Part shown: piece after piece, positions 12,670 through 53,965 of the stretch | How positions within the stretch are numbered: the first letter of the stretch is position 1 | Layout of the letters: the number at the start of each line of letters is the position of its first letter | Source of the DNA: Octopus vulgaris | Taxonomy: Eukaryota | Assembly: GCA_951406725.2 (NCBI GenBank) | Contig: OX597821.1 | Coordinates: 67,580,001-67,644,000, forward strand | Reading direction: 5' to 3' | DNA: 64,000 bases | Notes under the pieces: model-generated | Told to the model about the DNA's origin: nothing | The model's database searches: none | The model's input: only the letters and a program-made list of their open reading frames with translations | Translations under genes and position numbers: made by a program

Positions 12670-12835
12670 TGGGAAAAAGTCAAGGTACAAAACGCTAAAT
12701 CAATTTTATAAAAAACATTTCAGTACCGGTTTCAGTCATTGAAACTTTTTCAACTCTGAGCATGGAAAACAATACAATTTTGGAAAATTTAAATGAAAAG
12801 TTTTTAAAAAGAATATTTGCATAGCATTCAAATAC
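12670..12835 (-). mobile_element. Short TA-embedded Penelope-type element with U3-A8 hammerhead-like motif
   Basis: Minus 12753-12721: TTGAAAA-AGTT-tcaat-GACT-GAAA-CCGG-TA-ctg; second copy at 22690-22836 (+), tail-only copy at about 1795-1845. Confidence 0.6.
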
Positions 12836-12896
12836 AAGGGGCATGTATATATATATATATATATATATATATATATATATATATATATATATATAT

Positions 12897-13097
12897 AGGC
12901 CAACAGTGCCTTATACTCGTGTGTACCGTTGGCGATTTTTCCCCCGTCTTCCCTTCTTTGGATCTTTCCTTTTCCTATGTTTCTGACGAAGAGCTCCGCT
13001 CGAAACGTTAAACCCTCCTTCTTTCCTCAGCGTCCAATAATACTATACTTGTTCCACGTTCTCGCGTTGTGATGTTTTCATGTTTGGATTAACTTTA
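12897..13097 (+). mobile_element. Short TA-embedded element with minimal type I hammerhead motif
   Basis: Bounded by (TA)n on both sides; contains the motif at 12979-13013. Confidence 0.65.
12979..13013 (+). ncRNA. Minimal type I hammerhead ribozyme-like motif
   Basis: GTTT-CTGACGA-a-GAGC-tcc-GCTC-GAAA-cg-TT-AAAC: intact core boxes, 4-bp stem II, 4-bp stem I, palindromic AACGTT in place of stem III. Confidence 0.65.
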
Positions 13098-13167
13098 TAT
13101 ATATATATATATATATGTAGGAGAGTATTGTAGTTCGCTTGAAGCATTGTCAATATTTGTAAAGAAT

Positions 13168-13421
13168 AAAAGTTTTGAATGGTACAACAATGCACTATAA
13201 TACAGACAATGGGCTATATACCTGTTGTAATTTCCTAATATTTCAGACTAATTTTCCTTCTTCAGATATTCTTAGATATTATAGCAGCAATTCCATCTAA
13301 GAATATCTGAAGAAGGAATATTATTCCGATATATCCTATCACACTACGGATGATTGAATTACAACAGGTATATAGCCCATTGTCTGTATTATAGTGCATT
13401 GTTGCACCATTCAAAACTTTT
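13168..13421. repeat. Nested inverted repeat, Penelope-like
   Basis: Outer arms about 13168-13232 and 13357-13421 near-identical; inner arms 13254-13277 and 13296-13319; both inner arms carry CTGAAGAAGGAA. Confidence 0.85.
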
Positions 13422-14961
13422 TAGTTTATATATATATATACATATATTACACACTCACACACACACATACATACACAACACACACACACACATACACACA
13501 CACTCATATCCGTATTTTTTTCATTCCCTATCCGTTTTCCCGTTTTCTTTTTCTCTCTATCCCTTTTATCGAATAGCGTATGCTCGAAACGTCAAAGACT
13601 TTTCCATCCCTCCCGAGCGTTAAACTAATGCACCTGCTTGCTGTTCTTTCACTTGTCTTCGTATTTTCTTTACAGTAACTTTCAACTGTATGTATATATA
13701 TATAATCGGCTAAAAAATCTTGAAGGTAACACATTCAAAGTGTTTGCCGAAAGCACAAATTTCATATATAGTTCACGCTTACTGTTCAACAGTTTTTCAT
13801 TGAGGTAATCAGAACTAAATATATAATTACATACTTGTAATACATCTTGATTTATACCATTTGCGGTTACTTGAGTAACATAACACATTACATACGGAAA
13901 TCATTTGGATTACCTAGTTTCTTTTTTTATTTAATTCAATTATCTAATTAGGTATTTGGTGAAGTATGTTTATATGTGTGTGTATGTATGTATCTATGTG
14001 TGTATGTATGAATATATATGCGCGTGTGTATATATATATATATGAGTACTATATATATATATGTAAATGTGTGTTATATAGTTTTATATATGGATGCATA
14101 TATACTATATTTTGTGTATTTTATATATATATATATATATATATATATATATATATATATGTGTGTGTGTGTGTGTGTGTGTGTGTGTATATATACATGT
14201 ATGTATTACATATGTGCGTGTCTATTATATATGAACATTGTGCATGCGGATATATGTGTGTATAGGCTTGCATATACGCACAGTTGAAGAGAAAGTGTGT
14301 CTGTGTGTGTGTGGGGGGGGGTGTTTATAAAATGTTCTTCTATGAATCATGTTATTCATCGTCTTTTGAGTTTATATTCGAAACCGAAGCGTGATATACA
14401 GATAAAATGTGATAGAGTCCACAGAATACCAAATTCACCGAAACATCTTTAAAGTGAATGAATCATACGGGAAATGTAACGGAAATATTGGACACTTTCG
14501 TTTATTTTGAAGATTGCAAGATGAAGAAAAAAAATGGTATAAAATACCATGTCTTTTCAAATAATAATAATCTTGCTACGAAACTATATACTGCAAATAA
14601 ATTGACGTCACACTGTTTTTTACCAGATATTTTTTTTTATGTATACAAACACCAATAGTAACTTAAAGATTTATATTATGATATGTTATAATTAACATGG
14701 ACATTATCTGACTGTGTTGTAACAACATTGGGTGGATTCCGTTGCGTCATTCGTTCCGGTCCTGTGCATAGTGAGTTCAAATACATGAGGGGTTAAATTT
14801 GCTTTGCATCCTTTCGGTTTCGGTACACTACTAGGATAAATTCCCTTGTATTTTATCTTTGTCCCTTCCGTTCTGCATCCCTCTCTCTCTCTCTCTCTCC
14901 GTCTATCCATCTATCAATCTATCTACCTATCTCTTACCCTGTCTTCCTGGAAGGAATTGTC

Positions 14962-50843: not shown

Positions 50844-51707
50844 TATATATATATATATATATATATATATATATATATATATATTGTTTCTGTCCACCAA
50901 ATACACTCACAAGGCTTTGGTCGGCCTGGAGCTATAGCAGAAGACACCTGCGCAAGATTCCACGCAGTGGTACTGAACCCGAAACCATGTTGGGAAGCAA
51001 GCTTCTTAGTGCACAGCTACTCGTTTGACATCGTTACGTACAATAAAACCTAATTCGTAAATAAGACAATGGTTGAACGTAGTTGCTGCTGATGATTAAA
51101 AATGGCTTTGTGCAAACTATGTGAAGATATCAAAGGAATTGATAATATTATTGAAATTGCTGTCTGTTTTGAAAGGTGTAACGGTTCATGAGTTCCATTA
51201 AAAGAGAAATTATCTTTTTGCATTTATTTGCGATTATATAATTGTTTCTTGAAATTATTTAAACTGAAGAAAGCAAAATAAGAAATTGAAACAGTTGCAT
51301 GTTCATATATCTATATATATATATGTGTGTGTGTGTATGTGTGTGTGTGTGTGTGTGTGTGTATGTATGTATACAGTAGAACCTCGGTTTACGAACGCCT
51401 CTGATCACGAATAAATTGTACTTTATATCTATCCATTTATCTATCTATATGTGTATGTGTGTGTGCGTGCGTGCGTGCGTGCGTGTGTGTGTGTGTGTGT
51501 ATGTGTGTGTGTGTGTATCGTAGTAACCAAGCTAATACAAGGGACAATACTCATTCGGAATTGTTTCAAAGCATAGTTTCATATCTAGATGCCTGTTGCA
51601 ATATATGTTAGGAAAACATTTAAATCAAAAGAATTCTTGACTGAAGGACACAATGTAAATAAAAAGACCGTAAGCACATGCAAACATACGAACATATATT
51701 GATATTT

Positions 51708-51924
51708 ACAGGTTGGCCCCAAAATAGGTTTATAGTTATTCAACTATCCCTTTCGCATTCATATGTTAACAGCTAAGATCCAAATTATTAAAAAAATATG
51801 AAACCATTATTCTATGCTAATTTAGTTAATTACAAGGTAGAAATTTTAATGTAATAAAATGTTTTAAGAGAAATTTAAAGTGTCTACGTGATAACAGTAA
51901 ATCTACTTTTGGGCGACTCTGCAT
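51708..51924. mobile_element. Tc1/mariner MITE
   Basis: caggttggccccaaaataggtttatagtt ... aacagtaaatctacttttgggcgactctg imperfect TIRs. Confidence 0.7.
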
Positions 51925-52146
51925 ATGCACATACATAGACACACCTACACATGTTATATATAGATAGATAAGTATGTATATCTTATATGCATATTTTCGT
52001 TTACCTTATCCATGTTACTTGCTTCGGACTTTAGATTGCGGCCATGCTGGGGTATGGTCTTGAAGAATTTTTGGTCACATGTATTGACACCAGTATTTAT
52101 TTTTTAAAACCTGATACTAATTCTGTCTGTTGCTTTTTTTCGAACC

Positions 52147-53566
52147 GTCACTTCCCACTGACGGAGCCTTCTCCGCTGGTGGCATATATCCCACTTGCGG
52201 TTCTGTCGACGACCTAGGAACATCCGCCGACCGTCCCCTGCTACTCTTTTTTTTCTTTCTTTTTGAGGCTGTGGAAACAGGGGGCTGCGTCGGCAGACGC
52301 GGGTGGTCGCTACCTTCCTCCGCCGCCTGTATATTCTTTGGTGAGCACACCTTTCTTTTTCTTTTCGTGGAGGCAACTTCTTCCACGACTTCCACCGTCA
52401 CCCCCTCCAATGAGGGGGCGGCGGGCCCTTTTTCTTTTTTGTGCTCCAGGGCCTTACCACGGCCCTTGGGGCAGTTCTTCCTGATATGGCTAGGCTGCAG
52501 GCACAGGTGACGCTTGGGGGAGCGTCCCTCAAGTATCACCGGGTACCTGTACTCGGCCATTTTTAGGAAGTCTGGGAATATCATATCTCCCACGGCCACC
52601 GGGGTCCACAGAGTCAAAGTTGCCTTTAACCCCACCGAGTCGACTACAGTAGCTATATTCACACTCAATAGCCTGGGCCCGCTATCCCCCAGGCCTTGTC
52701 GGATGGTATCTTCGATCTATCCCGCCTCCGTGTCCGGGGTCAGCCCGCACACCCAGGCTCTTCTTATCTTCCTCCCACAATAAGTGGGGAGGAGCAAAAT
52801 TTCTTTCCCCTCAAGGGGCTTGCTGGCAAATGTCTTTGCTTCCCCGAGGGTACCAAATAGCAACCAGATGCAAATTTGTCCCCCCCGCTCCCCGAGCAAT
52901 AAATTTGACATTTGGCAGATATTCTGCCAACTCTTTTTGTATAGTTTCTTTATTAAATTGAACGATGGCGCCGAGTAACTCCTTGGGCGGAACAATCTCC
53001 CACAGCAGTGGCTTCATTCTTTTTTTGCCATGTGTAAAAAGTTCACAAAAGTTCAAAGAAGTTGAAAGAAAAACAAAAAGTCTAAGAATGTCCAAAAACA
53101 AAAATTGTCAGTTGAAGCAAAAAATAAAAGAAGCACAGAATAAAAAGGATAGAGAGAAAAAAATAGAAGAAAACAGTTCTAGACAGCAAAAACGACAATC
53201 CTGGCCAACAGGTACTCCAGGCCAACTGGAACTTCGCGACAGGAACTTTTAAATGGTAAAAAAACAGGAATACGGGCCACCGCTGACAGCAATAGTAACA
53301 TCAACTGGAACAAAATTTCAAGTCTTCGGGCGGATAAGGCCCCCAACGCTTCTTTTTTTTTTTTTTGCTACACAAGCTAAAATAACACAATAGCCGCCGA
53401 GAGCATGTGAAATTGTCCCAGAGCTGGGCACAATTTACTGAAAAAATAATTTACACACAATAAATCATGCCCAGCTGAAAACAAACTTACTTCGACGGAC
53501 TTCTTTCGGTCTTATTTTTCTTCTATTTAGGACAGAGCTCAAAGCTCACGTCCTCACCGTTCAATG
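52147..53566 (-). mobile_element. 5' UTR and decayed ORF1 (gag-like) of a Tx1/L1-clade LINE
   Basis: PVILEGRSPKRHLCLQPSHIRKNCP is a degenerate CCHC knuckle followed by a K/R-rich tail; frameshifted upstream pieces; GC-richer than flanks; abuts a SINE-A tail at 52015-52146. Confidence 0.7.
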
Positions 53567-53706
53567 TCAAGAAGTCACCTCAACGTGCATGTACGGAAGC
53601 AAGCTTCTTTGTTTTATTAAATTTGCCACAAGGGCAGCACACAGAGAGATGCTTGCGGGCTGGACACAGAAATTAATGGGATGAATGATAATGATACAAG
53701 GATGAT

Positions 53707-53965
53707 AATTTGCCAAATTATTTTCGTCGCTTTGAGACCGCGACATGTTCACTGACAAAATTCCGTGCTGAATTTTTATCATTGAACAGGTCGAGGTCTC
53801 AAAGCGACGAAAATATTTTGGGATATTAAATTTAAATGTTGAAGTGAATCTAACGGTTTTTGTGTGTTTCTTAAATGGCTTATAAACACCATCCACGCTG
53901 CAATTGTTTTCGTTCCAGCACACGATCTCAGATCAGGTCACTTGCTATGCAAGTACATCTCCGTA
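53707..53965. mobile_element. Short repeat with internal hairpin carrying two G3-C8-type hammerhead-like motifs
   Basis: Arms 53707-53762 and 53771-53830; minus arm ttttgtca-GTGAACA-t-GTCGC-ggtctcaaa-GCGAC-GAAA-ataa-TT-tggcaaa; ends at (TA)n. Confidence 0.5.

Follow-up and report, generated by a model that had tools for sequence, protein, structure and literature searches.

Minimal type I hammerhead ribozymes have been described in the Penelope-like elements (PLEs) of metazoans (Cervera and de la Pena 2014, PMC4209133), where they lie in pseudo-long terminal repeats (pseudo-LTRs), mostly as single dispersed copies, with a short stem I, a palindrome for stem III, an extra base after A9 and a G10.1-C11.1 pair; natural U3-A8 variants are reported there and in Perreault 2011 (PMC3088659). 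The Neptune and Nematis clades of PLEs (Craig et al. 2021, PMC8557442) combine a reverse transcriptase (RT), a Zn-finger linker and, at the C terminus, a GIY-YIG domain, and their TA preference, inverted 5' copies and tails are also on record. The lizard Anolis has a Poseidon element, PAc (Frangieh et al. 2024, PMC11167929), with AT-rich targets; in vitro, two internal RT starts give rise to a tail, extension proceeds on both strands, the RNA template is uncleaved, and the hammerhead shows protein-assisted cleavage and partial rescue by the engineered C3G/G8C double change. PMC3846280 did not decide between a sense and an antisense PLE template, nor how head-to-head inversions come about. Here, we analyze hammerhead-like repeats in a 64,000-nucleotide stretch of the Octopus vulgaris genome (assembly GCA_951406725.2, contig OX597821.1, positions 67,580,001 to 67,644,000; hereafter the window), and compare them with copies elsewhere in the same genome.

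Our reading, to which we assign a probability of about 0.72, is that these repeats are pseudo-LTR pieces of three coding PLE families, each with its own 3-8 pair, and that most short copies of two of them, families B and C, are likely complementary DNAs (cDNAs) of a capped, uncleaved 5' leader. Directly observed were coding parents, family-wide cores, compensation between related families, copies that begin sharply on the 5' side, a G without a template, two 3' end sites and inverted pairs of one long and one short arm; cleavage, RNA ends and strand in the three families are predicted from genomic copies.

Three families of minimal hammerhead motifs

A preliminary description of the window had listed four cores, and all four are present: UUGAAAA at 12753 (-) and 22752 (+), CUGACGA at 12983 (+), and GUGAACA at 53752 (-), the last being one base off the quoted 53751. 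Together with a fifth, unlisted motif at 53782 (+), they form three families, A (12753, 22752), B (12983) and C (53752, 53782); the two A copies, listed among unrelated repeats, are one family. The two C motifs are the arms of a single head-to-head inversion. Watson-Crick pairing of positions 3 and 8 is found in the four listed motifs, as had been claimed, and not in the fifth, which has U3-C8. The fifth motif also owns the AATATT palindrome that had been credited to its neighbor, since 53752 carries AAUAAU, an imperfect palindrome, at the stem III position; the replacement of stem III by a palindrome stands, family-wide, in A, B and C.

The minimal type I layout is consistent across copies within each family, and the Penelope-type assignment of the preliminary description is supported. 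Family A has U3-A8, a 4-bp stem II and a 6-nt palindrome, without an extra base after A9; family B has C3-G8, the extra base, a 4-bp stem II and a 4-nt palindrome; and family C has G3-C8, the extra base, a 7-bp stem I, a 5-bp stem II and a 6-nt palindrome. A paired 3-8 core, GAAA and UH occur in all three, the single copy at 53782 being the exception. The pair G10.1-C11.1 is present in B and C, whereas the window branch of A has A-U there; this A10.1-U11.1 pair of the older A branch and the missing extra base of family A differ from the hammerheads of PMC4209133, in features that are typical there but not universal. Hammerheads of this minimal kind in PLEs, with the palindrome and the extra base, had been published before, and so had U3-A8 and AT-rich targets.

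With a descriptor left open at positions 3 and 8, a scan of the window that required a perfect palindrome gave 2 matches, where 40 dinucleotide shuffles averaged 0.1. Unselected DNA totalling 344 kb, made up of the window and 28 random stretches of 10 kb, gave 9 matches against 0.2 in shuffles; of these nine, seven are Watson-Crick paired at 3-8 (4 C-G, 2 U-A, 1 G-C) and 2 are unpaired. The window copies are partly decayed: the 22752 copy has a C-A mismatch in stem II, stem I at 12753 is 2 bp, and 53752 is the sole copy that combines the drawn fold with a notable z-score (-2.4). The idea that the motifs are chance hammerhead-like matches in AT-rich repeats gains something from the two window copies for which the drawn fold is not obtained. 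Set against the excess over shuffles, the family-wide layout, the adjoining PLE frames and the compensatory changes, chance is hardly credible, and we regard this reading as already largely refuted. In an Rfam scan, no hammerhead family was among the best 150 of 201 matches.

Family C is abundant. A 17-base pattern open at positions 3 and 8 had 7,872 matches in the genome (control 5), and G3-C8 was found in 94 of the first 100 listed, the other six differing at position 3 or 8. A generic G3-C8 pattern gave 9,307 matches, versus 867 when reversed, with family C dominating among the 100 matches listed. The preference for (TA)n proposed in the preliminary description is strong in B, where nearly all of 30 aligned copies have a TA 3' end; in C it is partial, 25 out of 62 different 3' ends having a TA run within 12 nt. 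AT/TA-rich targets as such are supported. Animal non-LTR retrozymes (bioRxiv 10.64898/2026.07.22.740005) are likewise short non-coding hammerhead repeats related to PLE pseudo-LTRs. They are defined by tandem hammerhead units, unlike the listed A, B and C copies, which are mostly single or head-to-head (not a genome-wide count).

Coding parents

Longer copies of family A continue upstream into a GIY-YIG frame. In a young sister branch of A, all eight long loci fetched hold frames of 784-827 aa, with tandem and inverted copies, and the hammerhead lies 600-800 nt past the stop codon; RVT_1 and GIY-YIG domains were matched in the one family A parent frame scanned. Family C parents were reached through a motif 45 nt upstream of the core and then through the endonuclease, and the G3-C8 motif was found 1.2-1.5 kb downstream of the endonuclease in 29 of the 30 loci that the endonuclease retrieved. 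One of these parents (L321) has a 1025-aa frame, its GIY-YIG domain recognized by Pfam and its RT by motifs and by BLASTP to the RT of family A. Long copies of family B have a CA-rich region in common, and one of them (L488) has a decayed GIY-YIG piece 1.8 kb upstream, in DNA shared with L480. Because coding elements sharing the sequence exist for all three, A, B and C are the ends of coding PLEs and not orphan non-autonomous families, and their earlier description as non-autonomous and unrelated is not supported as it stood; many of the short copies may nevertheless be re-mobilised in trans. Partial tandems or inverted 5' copies occur in 33 of 60 C loci and in A parents, and an optional 3' tail is seen in A, C, a further family D (below) and a sister family of C.

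When the Zn-finger pattern of the linker is compared by eye with the published rows, a comparison that is not a phylogeny, A and B appear Neptune-like and C Nematis-like, the spacer being long in A and B, as in the Neptune rows, and short in C, as in the Nematis rows (PMC8557442). Unlike the described members of these clades, family A has an upstream open reading frame (ORF) that overlaps the RT frame. At one young A parent (L154:4484-5824 and 5761-8115, both (+)), this ORF runs for about 410 codons from an ATG and overlaps the RT-endonuclease frame in the -1 frame, and the overlap contains a U-rich slippery-type heptamer, which makes a programmed frameshift possible. A similar upstream ORF is present in a second Neptune-type family (L328, L329). 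At L228-L249, a second Neptune-type family with a 781-aa frame carries, 0.4-1.1 kb past the endonuclease, a U3-A8 motif that has a different palindrome. A 7.2-kb triple repeat on C17 was considered as a full-length C element and rejected as a local duplication without a PLE frame.

Compensatory change at positions 3 and 8

Position 8 of the hammerhead supplies the 2'-OH that acts as general acid, and the 3-8 pair forms in the active conformation. Across 58 family C copies, the core is 96% and the 3' flank 95% conserved (loop II, which differs between subfamilies, 78%). The preliminary description had named a core kept no better than its flanks as grounds for refutation, and the core is indeed kept no better; this comparison within a family is uninformative for function, however, because dead copies decay neutrally. 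The covariation signal appears to lie between families, not within them, in agreement with the compensatory 3-8 pairs that had been predicted. Six rows, from C, D and two relatives of C, were aligned; both sides have changed in 4 of the 11 pairs, 3-8 among them, and the covariation score of 0.255 (0.02-0.09 in slid controls) is reached by 3 of 500 shuffles. The six rows are hand-picked and related, two of them are unpaired at 3-8, and the shuffle count is not a probability. Stem II position 10.1-11.1 changes as well, from G-C in young A to A-U in the window's older A. A sister family of the C parent, its RT 60% identical, carries C3-G8 in each of three copies, and its tail sequence recurs in the U3-A8 family D. 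One PLE lineage therefore appears, from these alignments, to use C-G, U-A and G-C at 3-8, with compensatory changes in the stems.

Double changes that keep the 3-8 pair are best explained by selection for catalysis, because the pair forms in the active conformation, and G5, A6, G12, A13, A14 and the UH site are retained across the aligned families. Both points tell against the motifs being hammerhead-shaped structural or protein-binding relics that no longer cleave, in which 3-8 swaps would preserve the fold only. Such relics would fit with copies that run through the cleavage site, with the spread of sub-lineages that have broken cores, and with the young sister family of the C parent (P0001; frames up to ~1312 aa) that has C and not A at position 9 in 3 of 3 copies (L490:823-868, L491, L492). 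It has further been reported that metazoan minimal hammerheads cleave poorly in vitro (PMC4209133), and that G8C alone costs 10^5-fold with only partial rescue (PMC8495972). On balance we consider relics unlikely, if deserving of serious attention.

Several other hammerhead-like repeats were noted. Family D is a U3-A8 element of ~150 nt with inversions, a tail and a C-like stem II (L213:2080-2240 (-), L025, L157, L220), and it dominates a pattern search with 7,452 matches (control 2,062); no coding parent of its own was located. Additional families have C3-G8 (L084, L104, L163), U3-A8 (L162), and C3-G8 as a perfect inverted pair (L209), and single divergent C relatives have G3-C8 with a different 7-bp stem II (L203:4825-4878 (-)) or A3-C8 (L101/L204).

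Ends of the short copies

The first 100 matches listed on one chromosome for a motif that lies downstream of the cleavage site supplied a set of 97 C copies. Forty of them start 18-26 nt before position 3, and only 2 extend past 30 nt. RNA 5' ends at the predicted UH sites, as anticipated by the preliminary description, are not mirrored in these genomic copies: no pile-up was seen, 2 of 97 starting within 3 nt of the site and neither cleanly. A sharp start upstream of the core, with none at the cleavage site, points to a template that was uncut by the ribozyme and had a defined 5' end. Where C copies are flanked by TA, a G precedes the first A in 62 of 77 cases in one TA phase and in 17 of 90 in the other, a rate that thus differs between phases (81% vs 19%), whereas long C copies have C or T at that position. 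The internal control, made for C only, is a site of the same context, and 1 of 69 has G there (matched phase, Fisher p 3e-4; tallies by hand from listings). Family B has G in 45 of the 75 matches in which a non-A base precedes the A of the initiator-like site. An extra G marks capped full-length L1 insertions (PMC11702581), and in Drosophila, Penelope has an internal promoter within the pseudo-LTR (PMC2377424). The literature listings gave nothing on point for cap-terminated PLE copies, and cap-terminated leader copies are not described for PAc in the parts covered of PMC11167929.

The 3' ends are equally defined, 63 of the 97 copies being long and 33 of the other 34 stopping 55-62 nt earlier. 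Among head-to-head C pairs with the anchor in both arms, one arm is long and one short in 13 of 13 (hand count).

The same ends could be produced if short C and B copies were SINE-like (short interspersed nuclear element) non-autonomous subfamilies, descended from short masters that already started with G. Short copies do far outnumber long ones, with 7,872 core matches in C against 826 for the motif 45 nt upstream of the core, and 2,250 against 77 matches in B. In addition, nine dispersed C loci (L346, L349, L382, L383, L386, L387, L391, L402, L417) share one inversion junction that deletes part of one core, and at least one derived unit must therefore have been re-mobilised. Yet both loop-II subfamilies of C, whose long copies have C or T, show the extra G, and so, independently, does B at the same initiator-like position; the DNA upstream of the G is not conserved. 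We hold a true SINE-like origin to be rather improbable; it and the origin from capped leaders can both be true in part.

A different account of the C boundary takes it as a splice acceptor, with short copies made from spliced RNA. The upstream DNA does resemble a branch point, a pyrimidine tract and AG, and the leader intron of Drosophila Penelope ends at helix I (PMC4209133; PMC2377424). The AG, however, is retained in the short copies, which have a single base beyond it in common, so that the first exon would be 1-3 nt, and family B has the same G without AG. A splice origin is in our judgment very unlikely.

A proposed replication route

The preferred origin, from capped and uncleaved leaders, can be laid out as a series of steps. 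Transcription would start at the initiator-like A within the pseudo-LTR, in C 23 nt before position 3, and the RT-endonuclease would nick AT/TA-rich DNA. The cDNA would begin at either of two RNA sites that lie internally, downstream of the ribozyme, and the RT would pass through the intact ribozyme to the cap, adding a C opposite it; from 5'-proximal starts it would reach the cap after 150-210 nt, leaving mini-copies. Two cDNAs primed on opposite strands would yield head-to-head pairs. With the start region and the RT sites still in place, the mini-copies could serve as templates once more, as the nine loci with one shared junction show to have happened. The ribozyme is predicted to act at some other step, cleaving weakly, either in dimeric form or helped by protein, and the G3-C8 form would be the natural counterpart of the C3G/G8C rescue mutant, which in PAc was engineered and in family C is the family sequence. 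This mechanism agrees with what PAc does in vitro, and it speaks against the antisense self-priming idea raised in PMC3846280. In its most specific form, the proposal is that a young Nematis-type family fixed a natural G3-C8 hammerhead, within one lineage that has three 3-8 pairs, that its thousands of short copies are cDNAs running from the cap to an internal start, and that its inversions come from two separately primed cDNAs; we offer this tentatively, at somewhat less than even odds.

Several observations weigh against our reading, in addition to the equal conservation of core and flank within C, the G rate that differs between phases, the control limited to C, the small alignment, the clades read from linker pattern, the splice-like upstream DNA and the shared junction given above. 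Broken motifs have spread, as a U3-C8 sub-lineage of C makes up 2 of 100 listed matches and 7 of the 30 copies most similar to the one in the window. In family A the 5' length differs from copy to copy, in the manner of ordinary 5' truncations. When two C motifs were cofolded by minimum energy, no palindrome-paired dimer was obtained, with energy models that omit core contacts.

Annotation of the window

Table 1. Hammerhead-bearing repeats and associated features of the window (positions are those of the whole stretch).
Feature	Position	Strand	Remarks
Family A copy 1, Neptune-like PLE 3' end (pseudo-LTR piece)	12670..12845	-	TA tract on each side; parent with ORFs
U3-A8 minimal hammerhead motif, family A	12721..12756	-	Cleavage predicted after 12724, position 3 at 12753; stem I decayed in part
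(TA)26 tract separating A and B copies	12846..12897	none	Likely target of both
Family B copy, short Neptune-like PLE pseudo-LTR piece	12916..13096	+	5' start ~15 nt inside usual boundary; 3' end TA
C3-G8 minimal hammerhead motif, family B	12979..13013	+	4-bp stem II and 4-nt palindrome, with an extra base after A9; cleavage predicted after 13009
Family A copy 2	22668..22840	+	3' end is a TA tract
U3-A8 minimal hammerhead motif, family A copy 2	22749..22784	+	Cleavage predicted after 22781, position 3 at 22752; a single mismatch in stem II
Family C inverted arm	53706..53770	-	3' side shortened
G3-C8 minimal hammerhead motif, family C	53709..53759	-	Cleavage predicted after 53716, position 3 at 53752; stem I of 7 bp, stem II of 5 bp; fold z -2.4
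Family C forward arm, Nematis-like PLE pseudo-LTR leader	53770..53967	+	Long 3' end
Fifth motif, family C hammerhead	53775..53825	+	U3-C8 unpaired at 53782; AAUAUU palindrome
Optional ~58-nt tail	53908..53967	+	Between the two 3' end sites of family C; 33/34 short ends 55-62 nt before the long end

Directly 3' of the B copy lies a nested inverted repeat of ~280 bp (13120-13400), possibly the inverted ends of another element. Short tandem arrays with a repeat unit of 183-217 bp, of a putative octopus SINE type, are found at 47523-48157 and 59680-60044.

Implications for PLE hammerheads and replication

The G3-C8 pair has so far been treated as a laboratory rescue mutant. The literature searched gave engineered variants only, the PLE-variant survey of Luense, Weinberg and Breaker and one supplement of PMC4209133 falling outside its scope, and a G3-C8 row is absent from the covered part of Fig. 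S3 of PMC4209133 (its first rows and supplement file 1 lie outside that part); a natural G3-C8 may be new. A natural, high-copy G3-C8 family, if true, would widen the descriptors used in ribozyme searches, in keeping with the earlier suggestion, supported here, that variants of this kind are invisible to CUGANGA descriptors, and it would provide a ready test of whether PLE hammerheads are selected for catalysis. The cap-type G, the fixed ends and the pairs of long and short arms bear on the undecided question of PLE template and inversion, and these genomic footprints favor, as a probable template, a capped sense RNA uncut by its own ribozyme. If true, this would amount to in vivo evidence that the PLE RT copies capped sense RNA through an uncleaved ribozyme, and the end signatures of families C and B name exact, testable positions for PLE replication.

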